This document shows positions 2,154-40,709 of a DNA stretch of 64,000 nt, piece after piece (the stretch's first letter is position 1; every line of letters begins with the position of its first letter). Origin of the DNA: a virus. Taxonomy: Duplodnaviria; Heunggongvirae; Uroviricota; Caudoviricetes. Location of the stretch: IMG/VR virus record IMGVR_UViG_2974574300_000001, positions 1 through 64,000 of that record. One strand, written 5' to 3'. The notes beneath the pieces are model-generated. The model was given only the letters and a program-made list of their open reading frames with translations, ran no database searches and was not told where the DNA came from. A program made the position numbers and the translations under genes.

Positions 2154-2230
2154 CTCTGTTTAGCTCAGCTTGGTAGAGCGTTCCGTTTGGGGCGGTAAGG
2201 CCGGAGGTTCAAGTCCTCCAACAGAGACCA
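2154..2230 (+). tRNA. tRNA-Pro (anticodon TGG)
   Basis: 7 bp acceptor CTCTGTT/AACAGAG, D-arm GCTC..GAGC, anticodon loop TTTGGGG, T-arm GGAGG-TTCAAGT-CCTCC, encoded CCA. Confidence 0.75.
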
Positions 2231-2237
2231 AATTAAT

Positions 2238-2315
2238 GTTCCAGTAGACAAAATGGTATAGTCACCACTCTTTCAAAGTGGATATTTGAGGGTTCAAATC
2301 CCTTCTGGAACGCCA
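2238..2315 (+). tRNA. tRNA-Glu (anticodon TTC)
   Basis: acceptor GTTCCAG/CTGGAAC, anticodon stem CCACT/AGTGG loop CTTTCAA, T-arm GAGGG-TTCAAAT-CCCTT, CCA. Confidence 0.7.
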
Positions 2316-2406
2316 GTTTTGACAGAAGACCAATTACAGCAAACTTAATCTTATTCATCTGAAGGTAAATCGGACAAAGAAGAGATTTGGTCTGGTCATT
2401 AAGAAT

Positions 2407-2483
2407 TGCGGGTATAGAGAAAGGGCGTCTCACATGTCTCATTAGCATGGTATCGGCAGGTTCGACTCCTGCACCCGCCTCCA
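2407..2483 (+). tRNA. tRNA-Met (anticodon CAT)
   Basis: anticodon stem CATGT/GCATG loop CTCATTA, T-arm GCAGG-TTCGACT-CCTGC, acceptor with 1:72 mismatch, CCA. Confidence 0.6.
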
Positions 2484-2566
2484 AATTTACAGAAGACCGT
2501 TTACAGCAATATTTATTAAATTTTTAGCGGAAAAATTGAAAGATACGGTCTGGTAATACTAAACAT

Positions 2567-2643
2567 GGTTAGGAAGCACATAAGGTATGTGCGGTCGCCT
2601 GTTAAGCGAATGGCACAGGGTTCGAATCCCTGACTAACCGCCA
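2567..2643 (+). tRNA. tRNA-Asn (anticodon GTT)
   Basis: acceptor GGTTAGG/ACTAACC, D-stem GCAC/GTGC, anticodon loop CTGTTAA, T-arm CAGGG-TTCGAAT-CCCTG, CCA. Confidence 0.7.
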
Positions 2644-2712
2644 AATTTAGGAGAGAAGCGATTGCTCACCGATTTGTAAGGTGCAAGTCCTTAGCCTGAA
2701 TAGAAATTAAAT

Positions 2713-2800
2713 GTGTCGTTATCCCGTAGATGGTAGCGGTGGGGACTGTAAATCCCTTGTCATTGAGACTCGGTAGGTTCGACTCCTACACGGCACACCA
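2713..2800 (+). tRNA. tRNA-Tyr (anticodon GTA), long variable arm
   Basis: acceptor GTGTCGT/ACGGCAC, anticodon stem GGGGA/TCCCT loop CTGTAAA, long variable arm, T-arm GTAGG-TTCGACT-CCTAC, CCA. Confidence 0.7.
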
Positions 2801-2805
2801 ATAAA

Positions 2806-2882
2806 GGTTATGTAGTTTAATTTGGTTAAAATACTCCCTGTCACGGGAGATGATGAGGGTTCAAATCCCTTCGTAACCGCCA
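2806..2882 (+). tRNA. tRNA-Asp (anticodon GTC)
   Basis: acceptor GGTTATG/CGTAACC, canonical Asp anticodon loop CTGTCAC (weak stem), T-arm GAGGG-TTCAAAT-CCCTT, CCA. Confidence 0.6.
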
Positions 2883-3310
2883 ATTTTGAGAGGGCTATTT
2901 AGCCCCTCCCTTAAAGAGTTCTTACGAGTATTCTTTAAAGGAGCAGAAGACCAAATTCAGCAAGTTACTTAAAATTTCAAGCCAATTTAATTTTGAAAAA
3001 TTTAAAACTTGGTCTGGCTCAACAAATTTACAGAAGACCATTTACAGCAAAACTTAAACAATCTATTTCTCGGTAAAGAAAAGGAGAAGGTTCGATTCCT
3101 TCACTCGGCAGGTGTCGAGTTGGTGTAATGGTAGCACTTAAGATGATAAACAACGGTCTGGTAATTATCTTTGTAGATAAGTTATTAAGCTTACCTGTGA
3201 GTATGCGACCACAAAGGGTGAAAGGGTAAATTCTAGATTTAAACCCAAAAAGGCACATCGCTACAGACCTTAAGCAAGTCTGGGTAGCTTATCTACAAAG
3301 ATAATTTAAT

Positions 3311-3386
3311 GGAAGTGTAGCAGAATGGTGATGCGGCAGACTTTTAATCTGACAGGCGATGGGTTCGAATCCCTCCACTTCTACCA
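3311..3386 (+). tRNA. tRNA-Lys (anticodon TTT)
   Basis: acceptor GGAAGTG/CACTTCT, anticodon loop CTTTTAA, T-loop TTCGAAT, CCA. Confidence 0.65.
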
Positions 3387-3390
3387 ATAT

Positions 3391-3467
3391 GGTTCAGTCG
3401 CAGATAAGGTAATGCAAGGGTCTCATAAGCCCTATGAATGTGGGTTCGATTCCCATCTGAACCTCCA
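3391..3467 (+). tRNA. tRNA-Met or tRNA-Ile2 (anticodon CAT)
   Basis: acceptor GGTTCAG/CTGAACC, anticodon stem AGGGT/GCCCT loop CTCATAA, T-arm GTGGG-TTCGATT-CCCAT, CCA. Confidence 0.7.
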
Positions 3468-3469
3468 AT

Positions 3470-3544
3470 TGTGGGTTAGCATAAATGGTAATGCAAACGG
3501 CTGATAACCGTTAGAAGAGGGTTCGATACCCTCACCTACAACCA
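3470..3544 (+). tRNA. tRNA-Ile (anticodon GAT)
   Basis: acceptor TGTGGGT/ACCTACA, anticodon stem AACGG/CCGTT loop CTGATAA, T-arm GAGGG-TTCGATA-CCCTC, CCA. Confidence 0.7.
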
Positions 3545-3559
3545 ATTTCAATAAAGTTG

Positions 3560-3588
3560 TTGACATTGAGATGTGACTACTTTATAGT
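3560..3588 (+). promoter_or_regulatory. sigma70-like promoter (TTGACA-17-TATAGT) inside tRNA array
   Basis: TTGACA 3560-3565, 17 nt spacer, TATAGT 3583-3588. Confidence 0.6.
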
Positions 3589-3880
3589 AACTAAAATACT
3601 TCAGAATATGTATAATTCAAACACCAATACATGAGCGTTAGACGTAACACAATGTGGGGAAATTTGTTGTACATATTCTGAATAGTTTTCGTTGCGTAGC
3701 GTCTATTTTGCAAATTTAAAATAAATGCAAACGACAATGTTTTTCTGGCAGTAGCTTGATAGGCTAAACACCAGTGAGGTCTTCCAATCCCTCATCAAAG
3801 AATTTGGCGTACTAGCCACGGTATGATTAATAAGGTGGGCATCTTTAAGGGCTTTCTAAGAGAGTCTTTAAAGATAATTA

Positions 3881-3962
3881 CGGGGCGTATCTCAGCGGTC
3901 TTCTAAACCGCCGTTAACCGAGTAAGTGGAGTATGCGGGTTCGAGTCCTGCCGCCTCGACCA
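3881..3962 (+). tRNA. non-canonical tRNA-like gene (anticodon-like hairpin with TCT, no clear D-arm)
   Basis: acceptor CGGGGCG/CGCCTCG, T-arm GCGGG-TTCGAGT-CCTGC, CCA; only a 5 bp/7 nt hairpin GCGGT-CTTCTAA-ACCGC placed where the D-arm should be, followed by 23 nt extra region. Confidence 0.45.
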
Positions 3963-4104
3963 ATTAGTTAGCAGATTACTTAGACGACCTAAGCGGGTCT
4001 TCCTGTAGGGAGGTGGTCTGTATCTCATGTTTTCCAGAACATGTAAATAATCTGAGAAGGGGCTTTACAGTGTTGAGATAATACGGTAAGCTTCGAATTA
4101 TAGT

Positions 4105-4187
4105 ATGGGACGATGTTAAGACTCTAAGGCATGAGCAACGGCTTCCAACACCGTTTCAAAGGGGTTCAACTCCTCCGTCCCATGCCA
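4105..4187 (+). tRNA. non-canonical tRNA-like gene (aberrant D region; anticodon uncertain, possibly CCA)
   Basis: perfect 7 bp acceptor ATGGGAC/GTCCCAT, T-loop TTCAACT, CCA; 26 nt between acceptor and candidate anticodon hairpin ACGGC-TTCCAAC-ACCGT. Confidence 0.45.
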
Positions 4188-4200
4188 AAGTCTTATTAGG

Positions 4201-4288
4201 GGTAGGTAGCGGCTAATGGTAGCCAAACTGTCTTGAAAACAGTTGCCACTGTAGAGATACGGTGAGGGTTCGACTCCTTTACTTACCG
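4201..4288 (+). tRNA. tRNA-Ser (anticodon TGA), type II
   Basis: acceptor GGTAGGT/ACTTACC, 3 bp D-stem, anticodon stem ACTGT/ACAGT loop CTTGAAA, long variable arm, T-loop TTCGACT; CCA not fully encoded. Confidence 0.7.
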
Positions 4289-4545
4289 CCTAATAAGATT
4301 TAAAGCCAAGCTTCATTCGGATGTTGCTTTGGTATCCCTCGTGTATTGTCGTACACACTGATAAAACACCTAGTAGGTGTCACGGAGAAGAGATAATATC
4401 AAGCTCTCCAAAGGTTCTAGTCACCGGATTAAACAAGACTATGCAAAGACCTTTTTAGGTCTTTTTAGAGGGCTTCTAAGGTTATTACAGCTTGTTGTGG
4501 AACCTTGTTGCTTAGGTTCTTAGAAGTTCTCTAAAAAGATTTAAT

Positions 4546-4623
4546 GGGAGATTGACGGTAATTGGTAAACCTACCTCGCTTAGAACGAGGTGTTTGAGGG
4601 TTCGAATCCCTTGTCTCCTACCA
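4546..4623 (+). tRNA. tRNA with anticodon TAG (Leu by anticodon) but short variable arm
   Basis: acceptor GGGAGAT/GTCTCCT, anticodon stem CCTCG/CGAGG loop CTTAGAA, 5 nt variable loop, T-arm GAGGG-TTCGAAT-CCCTT, CCA. Confidence 0.6.
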
Positions 4624-4630
4624 AATTAAT

Positions 4631-4706
4631 GCAGGTGTAGCAAAATGGTTATGCGGCTGACTCTTAATCAGTAAGACGATGGGTTCAATTCCCTCCACCT
4701 GTACCA
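4631..4706 (+). tRNA. tRNA-Lys (anticodon CTT)
   Basis: acceptor GCAGGTG/CACCTGT, anticodon loop CTCTTAA, T-loop TTCAATT, CCA; paralog of 3311-3386. Confidence 0.6.
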
Positions 4707-4712
4707 AACATT

Positions 4713-4788
4713 GGGGATGTAGTTTACATGGTTAAAACATAAGTTTTGCAAACTTGGGAACTGAGTTCAATTCTCAGTGACTCCACCA
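4713..4788 (+). tRNA. tRNA-Ala (anticodon TGC)
   Basis: G3:U70 in acceptor, anticodon stem TAAGT/ACTTG loop TTTGCAA, T-arm CTGAG-TTCAATT-CTCAG, CCA. Confidence 0.6.
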
Positions 4789-4794
4789 ATTAGT

Positions 4795-4869
4795 GCATCC
4801 ATAGTTTAAACGGGAAAATTACAGTCTTCCAAACTGAGGTTGAGGGTTCGATTCCCTCTGGATGCTCCA
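4795..4869 (+). tRNA. tRNA-Trp (anticodon CCA)
   Basis: acceptor GCATCCA/TGGATGC, anticodon loop CTTCCAA, T-arm GAGGG-TTCGATT-CCCTC, CCA. Confidence 0.7.
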
Positions 4870-4875
4870 AACAAT

Positions 4876-4952
4876 GCTGCTTTCGTATAATTGGCTATTA
4901 CACATCCCTTGTAAGGATGGAAATGCAGGTTCGAGTCCTGTGAGCAGCACCA
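4876..4952 (+). tRNA. tRNA-Thr (anticodon TGT)
   Basis: acceptor GCTGCTT/GAGCAGC, anticodon stem CATCC/GGATG loop CTTGTAA, T-arm GCAGG-TTCGAGT-CCTGT, CCA. Confidence 0.7.
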
Positions 4953-5047
4953 ATTCAGAGGTCAAGTGAAAGACCGCTGGTGTCAACTGAAGACCGTAAC
5001 AAATTCCACGGAGTTGAGTTAGCGGCACAACTTCAGACCTCTTTCAC

Positions 5048-5122
5048 ACTCGCTTAGTTTATATGGTAAAACATCACCCTTACAAGATGAAGAAAAAGGT
5101 TCAAGTCCTTTAGTGAGTACCA
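5048..5122 (+). tRNA. tRNA-Val (anticodon TAC)
   Basis: acceptor ACTCGCT/AGTGAGT, D-stem GTTT/AAAC, anticodon loop CTTACAA, T-arm AAAGG-TTCAAGT-CCTTT, CCA. Confidence 0.65.
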
Positions 5123-5123
5123 T

Positions 5124-5202
5124 GTTCCAGTATCCCAATTGGCAGAGAGGCCAGACTTAAAATCTGTGTTATGTATCGGTTCGAATCCGATATGGAGTAC
5201 CA
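5124..5202 (+). tRNA. tRNA with anticodon TAA (Leu by anticodon), short variable arm
   Basis: acceptor GTTCCAG/ATGGAGT (6 of 7 pairs), anticodon stem CCAGA/TCTGT loop CTTAAAA, T-arm ATCGG-TTCGAAT-CCGAT, CCA. Confidence 0.5.
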
Positions 5203-5207
5203 ATTTT

Positions 5208-5283
5208 AGCGGTATAGCATAACTGGCAATGCAGCAGTCTCTGAAGCTGTCCTATTAAGGTTCAAATCCTTATGCCGCTGCCA
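5208..5283 (+). tRNA. tRNA-Gln (anticodon CTG)
   Basis: acceptor AGCGGTA/TGCCGCT, anticodon loop CTCTGAA, T-arm TAAGG-TTCAAAT-CCTTA, CCA. Confidence 0.6.
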
Positions 5284-5314
5284 CTTCTAAGGGTTCTTAC
5301 GAGAGTCCTTAAAT

Positions 5315-5390
5315 GTGGCCTTATCATAAACGGTAATGACCCATGCTGTGAACATGGTCTATACGGGTTCAAATCCCGTAGGTCACCCCA
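5315..5390 (+). tRNA. tRNA-His (anticodon GTG)
   Basis: acceptor GTGGCCT/AGGTCAC, discriminator C, anticodon stem CCATG/CATGG loop CTGTGAA, T-arm ACGGG-TTCAAAT-CCCGT, CCA. Confidence 0.7.
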
Positions 5391-5396
5391 ATTTAT

Positions 5397-5472
5397 AGTC
5401 CAAGTAGCTTATATGGTTAAAGCGCGTGTCTGAAAAACATGAGAAGAGGGTTCAAATCCCACTGGACTACCA
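5397..5472 (+). tRNA. tRNA-Phe (anticodon GAA)
   Basis: D-stem GCTT/AAGC, anticodon stem CGTGT/ACATG loop CTGAAAA, T-loop TTCAAAT, CCA. Confidence 0.65.
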
Positions 5473-5489
5473 ATTTTCAAAGGTGCTTA

Positions 5490-6224
5490 ATGAAAGAGAT
5501 GACAGGACAAGGTAAGGAGATTTTTAATCTCTTAAAAACCGGTAAAGGGTTTTCTAACCCACTTATTACTGGTGCAGTAGTTCTCGGTGGAACCGTAGCT
5601 GCCTCTACATCACTTGTAAGCTCTATTAGCTCTGTAACAGACCCTACAATGAAGGAGAAGCTTGTTGCTGCTGGACTCACAACAGTCCTTCTAAACAGCT
5701 TTACAACAAGCCTGACAAGCACTACAGCAACTACTAAGACCCTAACAGACTATGGTCAAAAGTCTATTGATGAGTTTTCATCACGTATGCAGGTAGCAAA
5801 GGGGTATTCCAATGTTATGGGTGCAGCAGGAGAACAAGTTGGTTGTACACCATTTAGTGGTATTATGGGTGTTGCTACAGAGTATGGTCAGCAAGCTATT
5901 GACACGATTAACAGCACACTAGACAGTGTTAACGGTGTGTTAAGTGACTTACAAGACGCTATTGATAAGGGTCTTGATACTGTTTCTGATTTAGCTAACC
6001 AAGCTGTTAGCAAGATTAATGAAGGTATCTCAAAGATTACAGCTTATGCAGATGAAGTTGTGCAGATGATTGAAGAAGAAGCTGCCCTTATTGCAGAGTA
6101 CCTTAAAACGAATATCAATGGGTTCTTAGCAGGTATCTTACCAGACTGGTTTGATGATGCTTGGAAAACTGGTGTAATCGACACTATTGCAACACCAGAA
6201 ATGAAGAACGCATTACAGAAATAA
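5490..6224 (+). CDS. hypothetical protein (Ser/Thr-rich N-terminal half)
   Basis: ORF track 5439-6224 trimmed to first ATG after tRNA-Phe; AGGTG RBS. Confidence 0.5.
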   Translation: MKEMTGQGKEIFNLLKTGKGFSNPLITGAVVLGGTVAASTSLVSSISSVTDPTMKEKLVAAGLTTVLLNSFTTSLTSTTATTKTLTDYGQKSIDEFSSRMQVAKGYSNVMGAAGEQVGCTPFSGIMGVATEYGQQAIDTINSTLDSVNGVLSDLQDAIDKGLDTVSDLANQAVSKINEGISKITAYADEVVQMIEEEAALIAEYLKTNINGFLAGILPDWFDDAWKTGVIDTIATPEMKNALQK

Positions 6225-6225
6225 T

Positions 6226-6318
6226 GGAAGATTAACCCTAAAAGGTAAGGGAGCAGTTTGCTAAACTGCCAGTAGCTGAGAAATCGGTGTACCAGTTCAA
6301 GTCTGGTATCTTCCTCCA
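6226..6318 (+). tRNA. tRNA-Ser (anticodon GCT), type II
   Basis: perfect acceptor GGAAGAT/ATCTTCC, 3 bp D-stem CCC/GGG, anticodon stem GCAGT/ACTGC loop TTGCTAA, long variable arm, T-arm ACCAG-TTCAAGT-CTGGT, CCA. Confidence 0.75.
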
Positions 6319-6322
6319 ATCT

Positions 6323-6398
6323 GAATCCGTGACAGAAATGGATATGTGCCTGTCTGCAAAACAGGTTTATAAGGGTTCAAGTCCCTTCGGATTCTCCA
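6323..6398 (+). tRNA. tRNA-Cys (anticodon GCA)
   Basis: acceptor GAATCCG/CGGATTC, anticodon stem CCTGT/ACAGG loop CTGCAAA, T-arm AAGGG-TTCAAGT-CCCTT, CCA. Confidence 0.75.
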
Positions 6399-12128: not shown

Positions 12129-12506
12129 ATGGCATATCAAGGTTTTACTAAGTTAGGTAACAGAGAACCTCTGAATGATATCATTCTTTGGGAACAGGTT
12201 ACCCCAACAGGTCACTCTCGCAAAGAGTACACTCCGGTTGCTTCAACAGAATACCGTGTAGGTGAAGTTCTGAAAGCAGATGGTACTAAGGTTACAGCAG
12301 GGCAAGAAGCTCAGGCTGATTCAGTATGTATCGTTAACTTTTATGCAGACCTGCAACTGTCTTATCATGGTCAGTTGAAAGTTGTTGGTATCCACCGTGA
12401 TGCAGAACTGAAAGACATGCTGACTCTTGAATCAAGCGTTGATGCTGATGCAGTCAAGGCAGCTCTAGCCGCTAAAGGTATTGATTTCGTACCAACTGGC
12501 CTGTAA
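12129..12506 (+). CDS. hypothetical head protein (possible decoration protein)
   Basis: 125 aa ORF between protease and capsid genes, AAGGA RBS. Confidence 0.45.
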   Translation: MAYQGFTKLGNREPLNDIILWEQVTPTGHSRKEYTPVASTEYRVGEVLKADGTKVTAGQEAQADSVCIVNFYADLQLSYHGQLKVVGIHRDAELKDMLTLESSVDADAVKAALAAKGIDFVPTGL

Positions 12507-12539
12507 TAACAATAATAAGACATTCTGGAGAATTTTACA

Positions 12540-13616
12540 ATGTTGACTAATTCTGAAAAAAGCAGATTTTTCCTTGCTGACCTGACTGGTGAAGTCCAGT
12601 CTATCCCAAATACTTATGGGTATATTTCCAACTTAGGTCTGTTCCGTTCAGCACCAATCACCCAAACTACTTTCCTTATGGACTTGACTGATTGGGATGT
12701 TAGCTTGCTTGATGCGGTAGACCGTGATAGCCGTAAAGCAGAGACTAGCGCACCTGAGCGTGTTCGTCAAATCAGCTTCCCAATGATGTATTTCAAAGAA
12801 GTTGAAAGCATTACTCCTGATGAGATTCAGGGTGTACGTCAGCCAGGCACTGCAAACGAACTGACTACTGAAGCTGTAGTACGTGCTAAGAAGCTGATGA
12901 AGATTCGTACCAAGTTCGATATTACTCGTGAGTTCCTGTTTATGCAAGCTCTGAAGGGTAAAGTTGTCGATGCTCGTGGTACTCTGTACGCTGACCTGTA
13001 CAAGCAGTTCGACGTTGAGAAGAAGACTGTTTACTTCGACCTTGACAATCCTAATGCTGACATCGACGCTTCTATCGAAGAACTGCGTATGCACATGGAA
13101 GACGAAGCTAAGACTGGCACTGTAATCAACGGTGAAGAAATTCACGTAGTTGTTGACCGTGTATTCTTCAGCAAACTGGTTAAGCATCCTAAGATTCGTG
13201 ACGCTTATCTTGCACAGCAGACTCCACTGGCTTGGCAACAGATTACTGGTTCTCTGAGAACTGGTGGTACTGACGGCGTTCAGGCTCATATGAACACCTT
13301 CTACTACGGTGGTGTTAAGTTTGTCCAGTACAACGGTAAGTTCAAAGACAAGCGTGGTAAGGTTCACACTCTGGTGAGCATTGATAGTGTAGCAGCAACT
13401 GTTGGTGTTGGTCATGCCTTCCCTAACGTATCTATGCTGGGTGAAGCTAACAACATCTTCGAAGTGGCATATGGCCCATGTCCTAAGATGGGTTACGCAA
13501 ATACACTTGGTCAGGAACTGTACGTATTCGAATACGAAAAGACCGTGACGAAGGTATTGACTTCGAAGCTCACTCTTACATGCTGCCATACTGCACTCGT
13601 CCTCAGTTGCTGGTAG
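12540..13616 (+). CDS. major capsid protein (putative)
   Basis: 358 aa ORF after protease/scaffold, strong RBS, high codon-usage regularity; assignment by position. Confidence 0.6.
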   Translation: MLTNSEKSRFFLADLTGEVQSIPNTYGYISNLGLFRSAPITQTTFLMDLTDWDVSLLDAVDRDSRKAETSAPERVRQISFPMMYFKEVESITPDEIQGVRQPGTANELTTEAVVRAKKLMKIRTKFDITREFLFMQALKGKVVDARGTLYADLYKQFDVEKKTVYFDLDNPNADIDASIEELRMHMEDEAKTGTVINGEEIHVVVDRVFFSKLVKHPKIRDAYLAQQTPLAWQQITGSLRTGGTDGVQAHMNTFYYGGVKFVQYNGKFKDKRGKVHTLVSIDSVAATVGVGHAFPNVSMLGEANNIFEVAYGPCPKMGYANTLGQELYVFEYEKTVTKVLTSKLTLTCCHTALVLSCW

Positions 13617-29950: not shown

Positions 29951-30316
29951 ATGAAGTGGCTAGAGGAAGCTTTTAAAAATAATATTGGTGCAATTGTTGT
30001 TGGTATTTTTAGTGTTATTGGGATGTATACCACGATGCAAGTTTCAAGTGGTAAGCAAGAAGTGTCTGTCACAACAAAGTTACAGCAGCTAGATAATTAT
30101 TCCAGAAGTAACTATTCAGCTATTCGTGATTTACAGTCTGACATGAGACTGATTCAGCTAGGGATGGAGAACCAGAAAGTTCAGTTAGAGAATGTTAAGG
30201 GTGAAAACGCAAAACTTACCAAAACCCTTGATAAATTCTCTGACAGTGTAAATAATCTGGCTCAATCAGTATCAGCCCTCCAAGCTATTACTGAGAAGAA
30301 CACAAAAGAACACTGA
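29951..30316 (+). CDS. membrane-anchored coiled-coil protein (possible holin/spanin-like)
   Basis: N-terminal TM helix IGAIVVGIFSVIGMYTT followed by coiled-coil rich sequence; located after tail fibers. Confidence 0.4.
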   Translation: MKWLEEAFKNNIGAIVVGIFSVIGMYTTMQVSSGKQEVSVTTKLQQLDNYSRSNYSAIRDLQSDMRLIQLGMENQKVQLENVKGENAKLTKTLDKFSDSVNNLAQSVSALQAITEKNTKEH

Positions 30317-32952: not shown

Positions 32953-33282
32953 TTAGTCTGCCAACCTTAAATTGAAATTAACACCAAATTTTTCACATAC
33001 TTCCAACATATACTCAAGGGAAACATTACCAGTGAGGTGGATTATGTTGGATACACGAGCCTGAGAGATACCGCAAATTTTAGCAACTTGTTCTTGAGAA
33101 AGACCTCTGGATTTAATCTCTCTCTTAAAACGATGTGCAACGAAGTCTCTCATTTCGTCTACATCCATTGGACAAATATAACTCTCCATTTCAGCCTCTC
33201 TATCAGCCTCCCAATCATCTTGTGGGGCATAAGGGTCAAAAACATCATTCATCTTTCTTCTTCCGTTTGCGTGAAGTGTCAA
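32953..33282 (-). CDS. helix-turn-helix DNA-binding protein (XRE-like)
   Basis: RGLSQEQVAKICGISQARVSNI HTH motif. Confidence 0.55.
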   Translation of the reverse strand: MTLHANGRRKMNDVFDPYAPQDDWEADREAEMESYICPMDVDEMRDFVAHRFKREIKSRGLSQEQVAKICGISQARVSNIIHLTGNVSLEYMLEVCEKFGVNFNLRLAD

Positions 33283-33458: not shown

Positions 33459-33842
33459 TCAAATACCTGTGCAGCTTCTGTTTTCTAAGAAATACTCAAC
33501 ACCATACATAGCTTTTTGCATCAAATCTTCTTTAAACTGGATACGATGGTTGCGCATAGCCTGTACATCAATATCATCATGGTGCTTCTCTTTAATATTT
33601 GCAGATTGCAGGAAATACTCTCCAAGAACGCGATACTGATAGTCAGTTACCTTATCAGTCATCTCTGTTAAAGACTCTTCAGAGATTGGTTTCAGTAGCT
33701 CACCATTAGCTAGAGCAAGACCTTTAACAATCTGGCAAGTGTCTTCTGGAACACCTGATAAGTCCACATTTGGAAGTTCTGTTGCATTGACTGGTAAATT
33801 CATTGCCATAACCATTGCAGCAGCTAATAAAATCTTTTTCAT
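33459..33842 (-). CDS. secreted protein with signal peptide
   Basis: N-terminal MKKILLAAAMVMAMNLPVNA signal peptide-like sequence. Confidence 0.5.
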   Translation of the reverse strand: MKKILLAAAMVMAMNLPVNATELPNVDLSGVPEDTCQIVKGLALANGELLKPISEESLTEMTDKVTDYQYRVLGEYFLQSANIKEKHHDDIDVQAMRNHRIQFKEDLMQKAMYGVEYFLENRSCTGI

Positions 33843-34124
33843 AATGACCTCAAAGTTATATTAAATTTTGTATTACATTGAGTATAAAAATAAGCTATAA
33901 CACCTGACTTGTCAACAGATTTTATAGCTTATTTGGCAGATTTTTTATAAGGCTACTGCCATCCTTCCATACCAGACTACGCCATGCCAGACCAGACTTC
34001 ACATCACCTTACCGTGCAATACATCGCTTAAAACCCTCTTAGAAGACTCTTAAGTGATGCTGGTGAGTACCCGTTGGTTCATGCTGCTCAGTATACTCAC
34101 CAAATTTTCTATGTCAACAACTTT

Positions 34125-35231
34125 TTATTCGTAATCTCGAATAACTAGCCCAACAGGGAACTGTAAAGACCCCTTACGAGTCATCTTCTGGAACTGAACC
34201 GTCAAAGGTTTCCCGATAAACTCTTCAGGATGCTCAGCAAGATACTGTTTCTTCTCATGAGTAGTTTTCCATGAGACATCTACAAAGACGTTAGGAAGAG
34301 TCTCTACAACGAACTTGCCATGACCACGTTTATCGGTCTTTACACCAGTCACTTTAAACTCTTCAGTGTGCATCTTCTTGTGCTTAATCAAGAAGTAGGA
34401 ACGGTGACCACACTCGTAGAAAGATTCTTCAGAGATTGAGCGGTACATTGCACCTTCAAACTTAGCTTCAACCCACTTATCATGAGCTTCATCAAACTCT
34501 TCCCAAGAATTTACACGACGAGACTTAACAGGAACAACTTTACAGCCGTCTCTAAAGTCATTCAATGGTGAAGTCTCAATAATATCTCTACGCTCAGGCC
34601 ACGTCTTAGTACTGTCACAGATATCATACCAGTAAAACTTGAGTAGATGTCGGTCAGGATTGTCTTCATTTTTAATCATGGAGACAATATCTTCTAAGTC
34701 CAACCCATGAGCATAGATTTCACCATCAAATTCATCAACATCTTTATGGAGCCTCAACATTGCCATAATGTCAGGTATTAGCTCAGTAGGAATTTTATAA
34801 ATAGTGTTCTCACGAGAATATGCTGTAAATACACTGCCAATACTTAAGTGTCTTGAAATTCTACAACGGACACCATCAAGTTTTGGTTGAGCATCAGCAG
34901 GGAACTTCAGATACTTTGCATGGCTAACCTTTGCAGCATCATGAGCAAGCTGTACACCTACCTTCTCAGTATTCTGTGCAGACTCTTTTGTGTAAGCGTA
35001 ACCTTTACGGTCTACTTGTTTCTTGTACTTAGCAGAAACTTCAAAGAGAGCTTGCTGTTCAGCGTTACGCTCATTCTTTTTACCGATGTTCTTAGGCTCT
35101 GCTGTGTACTCTTCAAACATCATCTTGCCATTTTCTTTACCGTAGGTTGTAATAACTTTGTCACCTACAGCAACACATGACCAGACGTTAAAAGAGCCGT
35201 CTTTATTTTGTTTGTATAGGATTGTCATTTT
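34125..35231 (-). CDS. ATP-dependent DNA ligase
   Basis: adenylation motif KLDGVR (KxDG); size typical of T7-type ligases. Confidence 0.8.
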   Translation of the reverse strand, partial: KMTILYKQNKDGSFNVWSCVAVGDKVITTYGKENGKMMFEEYTAEPKNIGKKNERNAEQQALFEVSAKYKKQVDRKGYAYTKESAQNTEKVGVQLAHDAAKVSHAKYLKFPADAQPKLDGVRCRISRHLSIGSVFTAYSRENTIYKIPTELIPDIMAMLRLHKDVDEFDGEIYAHGLDLEDIVSMIKNEDNPDRHLLKFYWYDICDSTKTWPERRDIIETSPLNDFRDGCKVVPVKSRRVNSWEEFDEAHDKWVEAKFEGAMYRSISEESFYECGHRSYFLIKHKKMHTEEFKVTGVKTDKRGHGKFVVETLPNVFVDVSWKTTHEKKQYLAEHPEEFIGKPLTVQFQKMTRKGSLQFPVGLVIRDYE

Positions 35232-35421
35232 ATTCCTCTGAGTGATACCAAGTATTGCAAGCATTACATGCGTAAAGCTCTAAGTCATTTTTATCTGGTT
35301 TGTGGAAACAGTTGGCTCCGCAGTGGCAACGAAATGGCTTTCCACCAACTGTCAGGATGAAGGACTGAACCTTTCCATCAGGAGTTCGTACAGCATTTTT
35401 ATGCTTATCTTCTTTGTTCAT
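35230..35421 (-). CDS. small zinc-ribbon protein
   Basis: CHCGANC...CNACNTW cysteine motifs. Confidence 0.4.
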   Translation of the reverse strand: MNKEDKHKNAVRTPDGKVQSFILTVGGKPFRCHCGANCFHKPDKNDLELYACNACNTWYHSEE

Positions 35422-35624
35422 TTTCTCTTACCACCAATCTCTACGTCGATAACTTGAACATCGCCAGCAACATCAAACTTATGAATGATGCTTTCAACAG
35501 TGTAAGTCCAACCATCAATGCGAACCAGCTCACCTTCTCGTGGAACTATTGGATTACGTTGAGCTACGGTTGTAGTGGAGTGAACAGCATCATAACAGTA
35601 GATATAGTTTACTAGGACTTCCAT
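35418..35624 (-). CDS. hypothetical protein
   Basis: ORF trimmed to ATG with GAGGT RBS to avoid overlap with lipoprotein gene. Confidence 0.35.
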   Translation of the reverse strand: MEVLVNYIYCYDAVHSTTTVAQRNPIVPREGELVRIDGWTYTVESIIHKFDVAGDVQVIDVEIGGKRK

Positions 35625-35634
35625 CGTGAAAACC

Positions 35635-35892
35635 TCACTCAATAACCGTAGTATGTGATTCCCCATTTTTGCCATAGCTGTAAGATGTTGTTGTTTGAGA
35701 GTTTGGGCATCTGACAACAACAATATCTCTGCTTATAGCATCACCATGTAACTTGTATACTCTGCAATCTTGCATCTCTGGTGGGAGGCTGTAAGAAGCA
35801 TTTTTATCTTCATAAGAAGGGTTGCAGCCAGATAGAAAAATTACTCCAAGTGCAACCATTGCTTTCACACAACTCTTAACCTTATTGTTCAC
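35635..35892 (-). CDS. small lipoprotein
   Basis: signal peptide with lipobox LSGC. Confidence 0.5.
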   Translation of the reverse strand: MNNKVKSCVKAMVALGVIFLSGCNPSYEDKNASYSLPPEMQDCRVYKLHGDAISRDIVVVRCPNSQTTTSYSYGKNGESHTTVIE

Positions 35893-36024
35893 GATAGTCT
35901 ACCTCTCTGTATGTTTTTAAATAGTGAGTGATGAGTTCTGGTAATTCACTACGTTTAACGTTTGAACGAAGAAGTGTCCAGTCAAAACCTTTACCAACCC
36001 TTCCCCAGAGACTGTACATTTTCT

Positions 36025-36500: not shown

Positions 36501-37016
36501 TCAACTTAGTTTTGCAAACTCTCCGTGGAGTTTAATAGCAGCTTCACAGTAAGCTTTATGGGCTTCTTCTTCCGTTGTGTATGTTCCTATATGTATAGTC
36601 TTGCCATTATGGTTAATCTGGGCTATCCACTTACCAGACTTGCTTCTACTTGTACCTTTTAAGTTTTTTGATGTTCTGGGTTGTCTCCTATTAGACATGT
36701 TCTGCTCTTTTGTGGCCTCTCTTAGATTGTCCCAAGCGTTATTCAAACCATCTCCATCTTTGTGGTCAATGTGTTTATCAGGCCACTTACCTGTCATCCA
36801 GAACCAAGCAATTCGGTGATTACCTGTCCTGTATCCTAAAATCTGTGTGTGCATATACACACCAGACCTTGTGCGCTTAATTGCTCCGGCTTGGCTTCCA
36901 ATGACCACCCTACTACTATGTGGAGGTCTCCCAATCCATGTTAAGACCCCTGTTTCGGGGTCATAATCTAACCAAGACTTTAACTGTTCATGTGTGAATC
37001 CACAATCTCTCATCAA
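36501..37016 (-). CDS. HNH homing endonuclease with AP2-like DNA-binding domain
   Basis: HIDHKDGDGLNNAWDNLREAT HNH motif and C-terminal GKWIAQI...GTYTTEEEAHKAY AP2-like domain; paralogs at 47411 and 60835. Confidence 0.75.
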   Translation of the reverse strand: MMRDCGFTHEQLKSWLDYDPETGVLTWIGRPPHSSRVVIGSQAGAIKRTRSGVYMHTQILGYRTGNHRIAWFWMTGKWPDKHIDHKDGDGLNNAWDNLREATKEQNMSNRRQPRTSKNLKGTSRSKSGKWIAQINHNGKTIHIGTYTTEEEAHKAYCEAAIKLHGEFAKLS

Positions 37017-37567
37017 TGTACCTCATACCAGCTCTTACCAACTTTACCAGTACCAGTTACAAGCGTTTCCTCCTTAAGACCTAAGTTTCTTGATGCCTGA
37101 CCATACATCCAGTCAATTACTGCTTTAACATCCTGTGTCATCTCTTCTGGGCACTCCCAACTATTCTCGTCGTGGTATGCTAAAAGCAATCTAGCACCAA
37201 TAGCTGGTTTTCGACCATTCAGCTTTGTAAGACCCTCTTCACAAGCCCTTCTACAAGCAAGGTTGATAGCTTCATTCTGAACCTGACTTTCCGAACCCAT
37301 GAGCAAGTAATTTAAAAGTTTGTGCGGAGATTTACACCACAACCATGCACCTGCTACCTTTACAAAACCACCCTTAGAGATTGCAGCAGTCTTACCAAAC
37401 ACCTCTTCAAGAGCCTTCTTAGTGGCTTTGAAGTCTGCTTCCAAATTATCTATCAACTTTTTAATCTTAGGAAGGCGTACAAAGTAAGTTTGCTTAGTTA
37501 AAGCACCCTCTTCAGTAGTTGCAGCTTTAATCGTCTTAGCAAACTTCTCGTCACCTGCCCCAAACAA
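37013..37567 (-). CDS. DNA polymerase (family A, T7-like), 3' exon
   Basis: begins with FGAGDEK continuing motif B; contains motif C LLAYHDE. Confidence 0.8.
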   Translation of the reverse strand: MFGAGDEKFAKTIKAATTEEGALTKQTYFVRLPKIKKLIDNLEADFKATKKALEEVFGKTAAISKGGFVKVAGAWLWCKSPHKLLNYLLMGSESQVQNEAINLACRRACEEGLTKLNGRKPAIGARLLLAYHDENSWECPEEMTQDVKAVIDWMYGQASRNLGLKEETLVTGTGKVGKSWYEVH

Positions 37568-37569
37568 TA

Positions 37570-38370
37570 CATCTGGTCAATACACTCGCAAGGTGTACCA
37601 GTTCTCTTATGAACTTCTCCGCATTTCTACGGAGTGTCGGACTATATCACGTAGCAGTGCTGCTACCGTTGCGCTTGGGATGGTCATTAGCTTACCACCC
37701 TACTCTACTCAGTTCATACGTTAAGTATGCTTTTCGATAGTCTCTGAACGTTTCTCTGTTAGGAATCTCTATAATCATGTTATTTACTCAGGTAGTCAAT
37801 TGCCCTTTGCATATTATCAACGCTATCTGCAAGCAACCCCAAAGCTCTATTGCAATTGTGGCACAACATACCTCTTACTTTTCCGGTTTTGTGGTCATGG
37901 TCAACGACAAGTTTAGCCTTATGCCGTGAGCTATTCATGATAAAACCTTCACCGCCACAAATTTGACATTTGTAATCACAGTTACGAAGTAGGGTTTCAA
38001 CCTCTTCTCTTTCTAAACCATATGTTCTCAGGTAGTAATTCTTAACTCTACCTTTCTCTCCGCAATGCGAAGAACAATAAACTTGCCTTGCTGTTCTAGG
38101 CATGAACACCTTCTCACAGCTAGGACATTTCTTAGTAAGAACCCTATGTTCTGCTCTTCTGTCAAATTTTAATACGCAACTTCTGCACCGTTTTTGATTG
38201 TATTGGTATGGTTTAAACTCTGCACCACACTCAGTACACAATCTCTCTTTGTAACCTGCCATTGTCTCTCTCCTTTGTTTTAGGAGTCCTAACAGAGACT
38301 TCGCTGCTGATTACCATGTCTTTACAGACTTAGGCTTCCAGCAATTCACAACGTTTTACATGCGCCACTG
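37570..38370 (-). mobile_element. group I intron (putative) in DNA polymerase gene
   Basis: about 800 nt separating polymerase motif B halves (IYA.. | ..FGAGDEK); boundaries compatible with exon ending in U and intron ending in G; carries HNH ORF. Confidence 0.6.
37780..38262 (-). CDS. intron-encoded HNH endonuclease (endonuclease VII-like with zinc ribbon)
   Basis: DHDHKTGKVRGMLCHNCNRALG HNH/EndoVII signature plus CxxC pairs. Confidence 0.75.
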   Translation of the reverse strand: MAGYKERLCTECGAEFKPYQYNQKRCRSCVLKFDRRAEHRVLTKKCPSCEKVFMPRTARQVYCSSHCGEKGRVKNYYLRTYGLEREEVETLLRNCDYKCQICGGEGFIMNSSRHKAKLVVDHDHKTGKVRGMLCHNCNRALGLLADSVDNMQRAIDYLSK

Positions 38371-40513
38371 ACGCATAAATACCATTCTTGGCTTTCTTAC
38401 GACCCTTACTAATTTCTTGAAGAAGGTTTGTATCCTGAGTAGCTCGACAAGTCAAGATATCTTCCTCTTTATTAAGGCTGAAGTAGATACTATTTAAAGT
38501 ATGTGCATCAGTTCCTGAGTACACCACGTACAAGTCATTTTCCGAATCATAATGCAAATACTTGTCAATCTCTGGGTTTAGATACTGGTCAAAATGTTTA
38601 CAATAGTATCTACCATCCTCTTGTTTGACAAACTCAACCTCTTCTTTACCCTCTGTCACTGCTTTGGTGAACTCTTTATCACCCATAAAGTTACACAGCA
38701 GTACAAGTTGCGCGCTATTCATATCTGCTGAAACAATATTAGTCCCTTCTTCACAAGTCCACACCTCCCGCATAGGTGCTCCATAGACAGCAGCACCAGA
38801 TGGTACGTTTACAATACCATATTGTGTCATACGCCCAGTTGAAGTACCAAACACCATTGCACCAGCACTAAGGCGACCATCAGGACGAATCTGGTTCAAC
38901 CAACCTTTTTCATCATCCTTTGAGTTCTCAATAGTTCTGCGTCTGTGCATCAAAGTATAGTATTTAGCAATCTTCTGTCCAAGCTCACCTTCAATCGTAT
39001 CATAAGATGATTCAGTAAGTTTTGGCGAAGTACGGATTAAGCAAGGCTCAAGCAAATCTGTGTACTTCTTCACAGACCAGTTATGCTCAATGTACTGGAC
39101 ACCTTCATGTTCAACATAACTCAAACCACACCGCTCAACCATTTCCTGCCACTTAGGATGTTTTGTAATCATCTTTTTATTGTCTTTGAAACGACAAACT
39201 TTGACAGGACGACCATCTGAGTCTTTCTTGTAGTTCCAGTCATCTGGAATCCAACCAACTGATTTCAAGTAGTCTTTAACAACTGCTACCTGAGTCATAC
39301 GAGAAACTTCGAACTCAATTGGTGTATATGGTGCATCAATCAAACCTGTGTAGCGACTTGACTCAAGTTCAAAGTGGTTAACGACGTGGCTGTTATAGTA
39401 CTTCACAGTTTTGACTGTTTTTACTGGTTTCCAGTCTTTGCATTTCTTACCAATCTTTGCGTTCAACTCATTGCAAATTGCACGAGCATCCTTCATTGCT
39501 ACAAAGCCTTCCTTGTACTCTTCACCAGTTACAGTGTTGGTTGGTGTATAGCAATTTCTCTTTTCAATGTTAAAAATCTTTGTAGTTGGCTTACCAAATG
39601 GCTTGATTTCATAAGTTTGCATCTCACCGTTACGTACCTGCTGACGATACTTTGTTTTAGGGTACTTGGTAATTCTCTTCAGTCCATCTGCATGACCAAA
39701 TGTTTCAACATACTCATTCCAAGCTTTTGCAAACTCTTCTCCAGTGACTTTACCTTTGGTCTTAATAGTTGGAGGAAGATGTGGTTCAACCTCTGAAGCA
39801 AGCTCATTAGTCAACTTGTCAAGTTCCTTCACATGGAACTCCATAAGCTCTTTATCAGCTTTCCAACCATTGATAGCTTGTTGACTCATCCAGAAAGATG
39901 TTTCTTTAGCTCGCATGTAGGTTTCATAAGTGTCTATGCCACACTTCTTAAGCTTGAGATACTCATTATCAAGTGCCCGTTTAGTTTTGGCGTTAATACG
40001 GATATCTTCTACAACACGAGTGAAGATTTCTGCATTCCACACACCCCAATGCTCAATCTCTGGTTTACGAACACCAACACGAGCACCCCATGCAGCCAAA
40101 CCATGAGCACCTTTATAACCCTTTGGAGTTGGTCTATCCATCCACTGAACACGAGACTGGATAAGAGAATCCTGAAAGAAATTACTCCACGGCTTACATT
40201 TTGGATTATCAAAGTTCCATAAATCCGGTGCAATGTGATTGAAGACCCACCAGTCATAACCGAGGCCGTTATGGATACAAAGTCGTTTTGCCTTTAACGC
40301 AAACTCAACACCTTCACGTAAACCACCCTTAATGTACTTAGTGTACTTGTGACCGAGGATAGGCTCATCTGTAAAGACCCATACAGGTGGCTCTTCATCG
40401 TCAGATTTATAGTCTGCAAAGGCCATTACGTGAACTTTAGTGAACTCAAGGAGTAAACCATCAGTTTCTGTATCACCAACCAAATGTAAGTTTTTAAAAT
40501 CTACGTTTTCCAT
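38330..40513 (-). CDS. DNA polymerase (family A, T7-like), 5' exon with 3'-5' exonuclease domain
   Basis: exo motif GDTETDG, HNGLGYDW, and motif B start RKKAKNGIYA at the ORF end; reading frame continues into intron to stop at 38330. Confidence 0.85.
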   Translation of the reverse strand: MENVDFKNLHLVGDTETDGLLLEFTKVHVMAFADYKSDDEEPPVWVFTDEPILGHKYTKYIKGGLREGVEFALKAKRLCIHNGLGYDWWVFNHIAPDLWNFDNPKCKPWSNFFQDSLIQSRVQWMDRPTPKGYKGAHGLAAWGARVGVRKPEIEHWGVWNAEIFTRVVEDIRINAKTKRALDNEYLKLKKCGIDTYETYMRAKETSFWMSQQAINGWKADKELMEFHVKELDKLTNELASEVEPHLPPTIKTKGKVTGEEFAKAWNEYVETFGHADGLKRITKYPKTKYRQQVRNGEMQTYEIKPFGKPTTKIFNIEKRNCYTPTNTVTGEEYKEGFVAMKDARAICNELNAKIGKKCKDWKPVKTVKTVKYYNSHVVNHFELESSRYTGLIDAPYTPIEFEVSRMTQVAVVKDYLKSVGWIPDDWNYKKDSDGRPVKVCRFKDNKKMITKHPKWQEMVERCGLSYVEHEGVQYIEHNWSVKKYTDLLEPCLIRTSPKLTESSYDTIEGELGQKIAKYYTLMHRRRTIENSKDDEKGWLNQIRPDGRLSAGAMVFGTSTGRMTQYGIVNVPSGAAVYGAPMREVWTCEEGTNIVSADMNSAQLVLLCNFMGDKEFTKAVTEGKEEVEFVKQEDGRYYCKHFDQYLNPEIDKYLHYDSENDLYVVYSGTDAHTLNSIYFSLNKEEDILTCRATQDTNLLQEISKGRKKAKNGIYASVAHVKRCELLEA

Positions 40514-40709
40514 TTTTACTCCCTCTAAAATCATTAACCCCATACATTACTGCAAAAAATTATAAAAAGCAAGTTGACAATACACTTGACAAGGTGTTAA
40601 TCTTTGCGAAGTGGGTTTTTACTTAAAAGGTTACTTAACAGTTTAACTATACAGATACTTTAAAACTCTTAAAAGATTATTTAATAGCTTTTAAAAAGCT
40701 TTAAAGTAT

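Follow-up and report, generated by a model that had tools for sequence, protein, structure and literature searches.

Introduction

To our knowledge, the small exported proteins of lytic phages that have been characterised and have no part in lysis (T4 Sp, Imm, T5 Llp, Cor and Rtp45) are all exclusion factors. T4 Spackle (Sp) is a periplasmic exclusion protein which inhibits the gp5 tail lysozyme, and in Llp and Cor the two cysteines presumably pair with each other. As regards gene position, T5 llp is divergent from oad (the pb5 gene), T1 cor stands beside a tail-fibre cluster, rtp45 is directly beside rtp44 and a J-like fibre gene, and pSf-1 gp84 is beside J-like and receptor-binding protein (RBP) genes. 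The same point on receptor-gene adjacency was made for Drexlerviridae in the BASEL paper (PMC8594841), and the background on exclusion factors was in part taken from PMC12685063 and PMC9586334. In this study we analysed two genes in a 64,000-nucleotide (nt) stretch of a Caudoviricetes virus (IMG/VR record IMGVR_UViG_2974574300_000001, positions 1 to 64,000), hereafter called the window. They are the homologues of ORF87 (Felix01p159, 127 amino acids (aa)) and ORF91 (Felix01p170, 85 aa) of phage Felix O1, and an initial annotation had grouped them as candidate superinfection-exclusion factors, one secreted and one a small lipoprotein, which might block receptors or DNA entry.

The window is a Felixounavirus genome with a nucleotide identity of 93-97% to Felix O1 and SPT-1. 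A 2.9-kb query spanning both genes matched 258 phage records in nucleotide comparison, the top match being Salmonella phage SPT-1 (97.0%); Felix O1 itself gave 93.3%, and the other strong matches were many Felixounavirus genomes of Escherichia, Salmonella and Shigella. The carrier of the two genes is a strictly lytic phage, and both lie in a minus-strand block of replication and nucleotide metabolism (about 30.3 to 40.5 kb), with genes for thymidylate synthase, dihydrofolate reductase, a helix-turn-helix (HTH) regulator, an ATP-dependent DNA ligase and a family-A DNA polymerase. Both open reading frames (ORFs) are present on this strand at the coordinates listed in Table 1. They are already known as 'hypothetical' genes from more than 250 sequenced Felix O1-like genomes, and all 13 of the records inspected, Felix O1 included, label them in this way.

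Export signals of the two proteins

ORF87 begins at an ATG codon with MKKILLAAAMVMAMNLPVNA, followed by TELP. Its N-terminus is made up of an n-region MKK, a 13-residue hydrophobic core (ILLAAAMVMAMNL) and then PVNA ahead of Thr, which places Pro at -4, Val at -3 and Ala at -1 of the cleavage site; neither an RR motif nor a Cys lipobox was observed in it. This arrangement agrees with the tripartite rule for Sec signals (basic n-region, core of 7-15 residues, small residues at -3 and -1), and ORF87 was the sole ORF to pass a crude form of the rule with a cleavage site when the window ORFs of at least 100 aa were read from their first start codon. Homologues with 32-35% identity (P0083-P0085) have divergent yet canonical signal peptides, ending in …LNAYA, …GASA and …GASA ahead of D, M and N, respectively. 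ORF87 is predicted on these grounds to carry a classical Sec signal peptide which is cleaved to leave a periplasmic mature protein.

ORF91 begins with MNNKVKSCVKAMVALGVIFLSGC, followed by NPS, and has Lys at positions 4 and 6, an uncharged segment at residues 13-18 (VALGVI) and Cys at position 23. It conforms to what we take to be the PROSITE-type lipoprotein rule, for which we used the pattern [LVI][ASTVI][GAS]C with Cys at 15-35, Lys or Arg near the N-terminus and an uncharged hydrophobic stretch before the lipobox. Among 1311 combinations of start codon and ORF (at least 40 aa, six frames), ORF91, together with its internal start, was the only one to pass, and a looser scan of the 64-kb window gave no further credible lipoprotein candidate. 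Of 74 relatives, 73 have the lipid-acceptor Cys aligned with that of the ORF91 lipobox, and the segment preceding it is divergent, with N-termini of the types MNNKVKSCVKAMVAL…, MWKAVIVL…, MLKLLTLV… and MKYIVAVL…. Within the Felixounaviruses the gene occurs with two 5' ends (P0002-P0012), a GTG start giving the MNNKVKSCVKAMVAL… form and an ATG start giving MWKAVIVL…. In enterobacteria, Asn at +2 leads to Lol-dependent sorting to the outer membrane, and the Asn found at this position of ORF91 predicts such a destination.

The two export signals are unlikely to have arisen by chance, since they are rare in the window and are kept in divergent homologues. The cleavable-looking signal peptide and the LSGC lipobox that the initial annotation had pointed out were both borne out by prediction, which was positive for each protein; these calls were made from sequence rules and conservation. 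Taken together, it is very likely that the products of ORF87 and ORF91 are both exported. Pairwise ratios of nonsynonymous to synonymous substitution (dN/dS) against five relatives were 0.06-0.12 for ORF87 and 0.09-0.22 for ORF91, comparable to those of the neighbouring frd and td genes, and both genes are under purifying selection.

Mature proteins, families and distribution

The mature part of ORF87 is acidic and comprises 107 aa (12.3 kDa, isoelectric point 4.7). AlphaFold2, given a small family alignment, modelled it as a three-helix bundle with a predicted local distance difference test (pLDDT) of 95.5 and a predicted template modelling score (pTM) of 0.85. Cys36 and Cys124 (mature Cys16 and Cys104) are invariant in the family, and the stretch G-E-x-x-K-x-x-S in the loop joining helices 1 and 2 is invariant too. 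In the model Cys16 is part of helix 1 and Cys104 follows closely on helix 3, so that a disulfide joining the C-terminus to helix 1 is likely; the two invariant cysteines probably form this bond. A fold search returned generic helical bundles only, which were not informative, and among viral models (BFVD) the Mooglevirus homologue from Sf13 alone.

By sequence, ORF87 matched a single PHROG, phrog_4332, whose function is unknown, and a phmmer search of 1.8 billion representatives gave only four clusters (clustered at 50% identity). In tblastn it was found in 257 phage records, all of Ounavirinae type; 213 of these are at least 90% identical, and the 44 below 80% are of Mooglevirus type where inspected. 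ORF87 is restricted to the Ounavirinae, and the protein is 100% identical in phages SBA-1781 and GEC_vB_B1. Being both lineage-restricted and confidently modelled, it readily lends itself to expression and exclusion tests in Salmonella.

ORF91 is distributed very differently. It matched phrog_902 over residues 2-83 (E 1.1e-16), with distant homologues at 1e-7 to 5e-13, and a profile search collected 78 homologue clusters, 76 of which carry a precomputed PF16225 (DUF4884) label; for P0019 and P0036 this label is not marked as weak (E <=1e-5). A local Pfam-A scan placed PF16225 on 0 of 74 family members, the model being apparently absent from or changed in that copy. The name 'DUF4884 domain-containing protein' is used by NCBI for phage proteins of this kind (PMC12210894), and membership of ORF91 in DUF4884/PF16225 is as reported by the precomputed table and by this naming. 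ORF91 shares its length, lipobox, two internal cysteines and motifs with the rest of the DUF4884/phrog_902 family.

The mature part of ORF91 has 63 aa (7.1 kDa). The lipid Cys, Pro37, Cys43, Cys62 and Pro63 are invariant or nearly so in the family, which is further marked by the motifs LPxE(M/L)xDCx(V/I)Y and V(V/Y)RCPNSQT. AlphaFold2 modelled the mature protein as a small unit of five beta strands (pLDDT 74), in which mature Cys21 lies just before strand 22-26 and Cys40 just after strand 35-39. Since this puts the two internal cysteines at the base of a hairpin, a disulfide between them is likely. A tether of about 12 residues connects the lipid anchor to the conserved beta domain of 50 residues, implying that the domain would have to work close to the membrane surface.

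Close homologues of ORF91 occur in Felixounavirus and Mooglevirus, with a 98.8% identical protein in phage finno. By tblastn, distant homologues were present in 586 phage records (Vibrio 295, Escherichia 127, Salmonella 55, Acinetobacter 17, and others), and proteins of the same architecture were found in Vibrio phages of about 114 kb, Saclayvirus of Acinetobacter, Vequintavirinae and Asteriusvirus jumbo phages. The surroundings of the DUF4884 gene in seven lineages were small genes of early or replication type, and never an adjoining annotated tail-fibre or receptor-binding gene. At the DNA level there was no match to ORF91 in 5,426 complete E. coli genomes, which indicates that it is cargo of virulent phages; two partial matches to the family lie in Acinetobacter 'plasmids' of about 113-115 kb, with no others of that kind. 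The jumbo phage vB_Ec-M-J (L004, OQ718158) encodes at 3120-3395, two genes downstream of its DUF4884 gene, an unrelated Cys-rich lipoprotein, MIKKLLTVVFVFCTMFLTAC….

The initial annotation had treated the two genes as a group, and this did not hold. A ligase gene and two small ORFs lie between them, and ORF87 and ORF91 are unrelated genes in separate transcription contexts which should not be handled as a pair. Both are ordinary, uncharacterised phage cargo belonging to catalogued families of unknown function.

Comparison with known exclusion factors

One jumbo-phage homologue of ORF91, EcMJ_513, is annotated as 'Cor superinfection exclusion protein', and the alignment of the family with T1 Cor had an hhalign probability of 90.7%. 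We rejected Cor membership of the family on inspection, as the aligned part is made up of the signal peptide and some residues that do not convince. T1 Cor belongs to phrog_1119, and its match to phrog_902 spans residues 1-36 only, the signal peptide; phrog_1119 is absent from the PHROG matches of ORF91, and BLASTP against Cor and Llp gave nothing significant. When mature parts only were compared, hhalign probabilities of the ORF91 family fell to 0.2% for Cor, 8.5% for T5 Llp, 1.3% for Cor and Llp aligned together and 0.05% for Rtp45, and no fold match of ORF91 to Llp or Cor was found. The genome table of the T1-like phage Henu8 lists a DUF4884 protein in addition to Cor (PMC12210894); if this protein proves homologous to ORF91, DUF4884 would not simply be the exclusion factor of Henu8, and its coexistence with Cor would speak against receptor masking by DUF4884. 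The related phage pSf-1 has no ORF91-family member.

In general features ORF91 does resemble Llp and Cor, being a small lipoprotein of an enterobacterial phage with conserved cysteines and presumed early expression. However, Llp and Cor have one Cys near each end of the mature protein, whereas those of ORF91 are 19 residues apart across a hairpin. Rtp45, too, is a lipoprotein (about 6-7 kDa) which has an internal disulfide and acts from the periplasmic side (PMC12685063), but it binds LptDE, and there is no evidence that Felixounavirus uses LptD. Neither the profile similarity nor the position beside an RBP locus that would mark an Rtp45-type protein was found for ORF91. The comparison of sequences shows the ORF91 family to be no relative of Cor/Llp or of Rtp45.

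The position of the genes also sets them apart. ORF91 falls in the interval from the DNA polymerase gene to the ligase gene. The fibre genes are about 6 kb away and on the other strand, and neither ORF91 nor ORF87 adjoins a receptor-binding gene. The receptor targeted by Felix O1-type phages is lipopolysaccharide (LPS) and not a protein, and for Bas63 the LPS core has to be intact (PMC8594841). With LPS as the receptor, one-to-one receptor masking from the periplasm is unlikely.

ORF87 may be set beside T4 Spackle, as both are small, helical proteins of lytic myoviruses with a signal peptide and, in the case of ORF87, a likely disulfide. It nevertheless has no PHROG, Pfam or PDB sequence match to Sp and no fold match either. 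Searches of Pfam, NCBIfam, PADLOC and PDB sequences with ORF87 and ORF91 gave signal-peptide noise only, and in the literature we found no functional study or experimental report on ORF87, ORF91 or DUF4884.

Possible functions

The ORF91 domain is kept across phages with unrelated tails, receptors and hosts, and its partner is therefore more likely to be a conserved component of the host envelope than a phage-specific receptor or phage part. This, together with the role of the known exported proteins as exclusion factors, makes superinfection exclusion the leading hypothesis. Judged by analogy, exclusion is a tentative candidate for the function of ORF91 and a rather doubtful one for that of ORF87. 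ORF91 would be lipidated at Cys23 and its beta domain would bind a conserved host envelope component near the membrane surface, so as to shield the infected cell from later phages by a post-adsorption block at a periplasmic or DNA-entry step. The outcome would be like that of T4 Sp or Imm, and not a matter of shared ancestry; ORF87 would be in the same compartment and act independently. As for the initial idea of small envelope-targeted blockers, a periplasmic protein and a lipoprotein are supported and a block at the DNA-entry stage is possible, but blocking of receptors is unlikely given the LPS receptor and the distance from receptor genes.

Several points weigh against exclusion. Neither homology nor any reported experiment ties ORF87 or ORF91 to it. 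No peptidoglycan-hydrolase or lysozyme domain was detected in ten tail or baseplate proteins of the window, of which a 325-aa and a 139-aa protein had no Pfam hit of any kind, and a target of the Spackle type is hence not evident. Of the 73 family members, 23 have Asp at +2, among them the homologues from E. coli Vequintavirinae and Asteriusvirus; Asp at this position predicts retention in the inner membrane, so it is possible that the DUF4884 family has no action at the outer membrane, and the anchoring membrane may differ within the family. Metagenomic alleles of ORF91 that are frameshifted after about residue 45 (P0011 and P0012) suggest that the gene is sometimes dispensable or lost, and the confidence of its structural model is only moderate. 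Early expression of the two genes is plausible, being read from promoter-like sequences only; such sites numbered 13 in total against 11.5 expected from shuffled sequence, and our literature search found no transcriptome or expression data for these genes.

Instead of excluding other phages, one or both proteins may bind a conserved host factor, periplasmic or membrane-proximal, and inhibit it. Examples would be a peptidoglycan hydrolase, a protease, an envelope defence sensor or a machine for outer-membrane biogenesis or lipoprotein sorting. Such inhibition would keep the infected cell intact or silence its response, and secondary phages would be unaffected. The conservation of the ORF91-domain motifs across Escherichia, Vibrio and Acinetobacter phages with unrelated virions argues for such a role, as does the position of the genes among early or replication-type genes, and the variation of the +2 sorting residue suggests a target that is reachable from either membrane. 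However, there is no similarity to any known inhibitor family, and we know of no precedent for a lytic-phage lipoprotein in host takeover or counter-defence. We regard this explanation as somewhat unlikely.

It is also conceivable, albeit improbable, that DUF4884 represents a new and widespread class of lytic-phage lipoprotein docking on a conserved gammaproteobacterial envelope machine, with Lpt, Bam, Lol, Tol-Pal or a peptidoglycan enzyme as examples of possible partners. If true, secondary infection would be blocked broadly and independently of the receptor, or else the envelope would be taken over in a general way, and the conservation of DUF4884 in myoviruses, siphoviruses and jumbo phages infecting Escherichia, Vibrio and Acinetobacter would be explained. 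Little changes if ORF87 and ORF91 are merely two more uncharacterised exported phage proteins. The point of mild interest is that DUF4884 is widespread in virulent phages and yet is neither Cor/Llp, Rtp45 nor spanin; its partner, once found, could show how phages modify the Gram-negative envelope independently of a receptor. Such a finding would bear on envelope biology and on phage cocktails, where exclusion between therapeutic phages matters.

A role in lysis timing appears quite improbable for either protein. ORF87, and possibly ORF91, would here act like T4 RI by binding the periplasmic part of a holin or spanin and delaying lysis, perhaps in response to secondary adsorption. Felixounaviruses carry rIIA and rIIB homologues, a membrane-anchored coiled-coil protein is encoded at 29951-30316 of the window, and ORF87 is predicted to be periplasmic and helical like the periplasmic domain of RI. 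On the other hand, the signal peptide of ORF87 is of the cleavable kind and not a signal-anchor-release domain, the BFVD search returned no RI-like protein, and the gene lies in an operon of nucleotide metabolism and regulation away from the lysis genes; the ORF91 family, for its part, is present in siphoviruses and jumbo phages with other lysis systems. The protein at 29951-30316 (plus strand) is 121 aa long, has a single transmembrane segment at its N-terminus as well as a long coiled coil, and is called 'holin' in vB_Si_35FD; its topology is closer to that of an i-spanin or a membrane-tethered coiled coil, and no lipoprotein partner lies nearby.

Masking of the Llp/Cor/Rtp45 type, in which ORF91 would dock on the periplasmic face of an outer-membrane receptor and allosterically stop adsorption, is still harder to sustain. 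ORF91 is a small lipoprotein with a likely disulfide and a size near that of Llp (61 aa mature), Cor and Rtp45 (about 6 kDa; PMC12685063), and one jumbo-phage homologue bears the Cor annotation discussed above. But the mature-domain similarity to all three is negligible, the earlier 90% value and the PHROG cross-hits covering the signal peptide; llp, cor and rtp45 adjoin a receptor-binding gene and ORF91 does not; the receptor of Felix O1-type phages is LPS (PMC8594841); and the family is conserved across phages with different receptors.

Downstream of rIIB, the close relative vB_Si_35FD has two overlapping genes. The first (L018:12089-12436) encodes a protein of 115 aa that has a transmembrane segment at its N-terminus, and the second (L018:12330-12599) an 89-aa lipoprotein, MKKLSQSFIMFVLLITMSGC…, whose lipobox is MSGC. 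This overlapped pair, which lies beyond the right end of the window range, is plausibly the real spanin pair. In the same record (MZ327261, 12089-12865) the annotated 'i-spanin' and 'o-spanin' have no transmembrane segment or lipobox as called, and the annotated 'i-spanin' is the 12330-12599 lipoprotein with a truncated start. That ORF91 serves as an Rz1-like spanin subunit of the outer membrane in the final step of lysis is scarcely credible: it is the only lipoprotein in the window, and its Acinetobacter homologue weakly matches 'Rz-like spanin' PHROGs over the signal-peptide region (E of about 1e-3), but a canonical pair is present elsewhere in the relative, no neighbour of the gene has a transmembrane segment that could make it an i-spanin, here or in four other lineages, the gene is placed among replication genes, and the mature domain, unlike the Rz1-type o-spanins which it resembles as a small phage lipoprotein, is a folded beta unit and not proline-rich (4 prolines in 62 residues). 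The probability not taken up by these readings falls to something not yet described.

Transcription signals and neighbouring genes

The features identified around the two genes are given in Table 1.

Table 1. Features of the ORF87 and ORF91 loci (window coordinates)
Feature	Position	Strand	Remarks
ORF87 homologue, predicted secreted 127-aa protein, phrog_4332	33459..33842	-	predicted signal peptide, residues 1-20 (nt 33783-33842)
Shine-Dalgarno GAGG of ORF87	33848..33851	-	5 nt before ATG; conserved in Felixounavirus and Mooglevirus
Sigma-70-like promoter TTGACA-17-TATTTT	33887..33915	-	45 nt upstream of ORF87
19-nt inverted repeat, 89% complementary, arms 9 nt apart	33888..33934	.	candidate operator
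ORF91 homologue, predicted 85-aa lipoprotein precursor, phrog_902	35635..35892	-	GTG start; predicted signal peptide, residues 1-22 (nt 35827-35892)
Lipobox L-S-G-C, residues 20-23	35824..35835	-	Cys23, predicted lipid-modified first mature residue; Asn at +2
Shine-Dalgarno GAGG of ORF91	35902..35905	-	9 nt before GTG, inside the end of an upstream 48-aa ORF

The promoter-like site upstream of ORF87 is identical in Felix O1 and 35FD, and in ASO1B, whose depositors annotated a promoter at the same place, it differs by two spacer bases. The equivalent place in the Mooglevirus Mordin has TTGACA-16-TATACT. ORF87 is predicted to head its own sigma-70-type transcription unit. The arms of the inverted repeat flank the -35 hexamer and also cover the spacer and the -10 element of the site. 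Downstream of ORF87 there is a 70-aa ORF and then a gene of the Cro/C1 HTH type (32953-33282), which makes autoregulation of the unit conceivable; it is possible that the repeat is the operator for this HTH protein, encoded two genes downstream of ORF87.

The 282-bp spacer between the ligase gene and ORF87 (33843-34124) starts with a further near-consensus promoter-like site, TTGACA-16-TATACT (34117-34090), whose -10 element lies inside a hairpin with a 9-bp stem (34061-34069/34094-34102). This hairpin is followed by a U-tract hairpin and a GGT-rich tract, and RNA folding gave a z-score of -2.6. In vB_Si_35FD the tract is longer, and ASO1B and JLBYU32 carry two additional ORFs at this place, for which reason the spacer resembles an insertion hot spot or a small leader transcript.

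The GTG start of ORF91 overlaps the stop codon of the upstream 48-aa ORF. It is likely that ORF91 is translationally coupled to this ORF, within the run of small genes from polymerase to ligase. A 63-aa Cys-rich ORF in the same region (35230-35421, minus strand; phrog_5768) is zinc-ribbon-like (…FRCHCGANCFH…YACNACNTWY); it overlaps the long ligase ORF call and is labelled 'putative DNA ligase' in JLBYU32.

The family-A DNA polymerase of the window is split (36501-40543, minus strand) into a 737-aa ORF (38330-40543) and a 184-aa ORF (37013-37567), with an Endonuclease_7-type homing endonuclease ORF between the pieces (37780-38262) and a second endonuclease, HNH_3+AP2 (36501-37016), directly after the 184-aa ORF. 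The polymerase of Felix O1 is a single ORF of 2721 nt, and Rfam at the gathering threshold gave no intron in the split polymerase of the window. Elsewhere in the window, 21 tRNA genes are clustered at 2154-6395 on the plus strand, as is typical for Felix O1-like phages.

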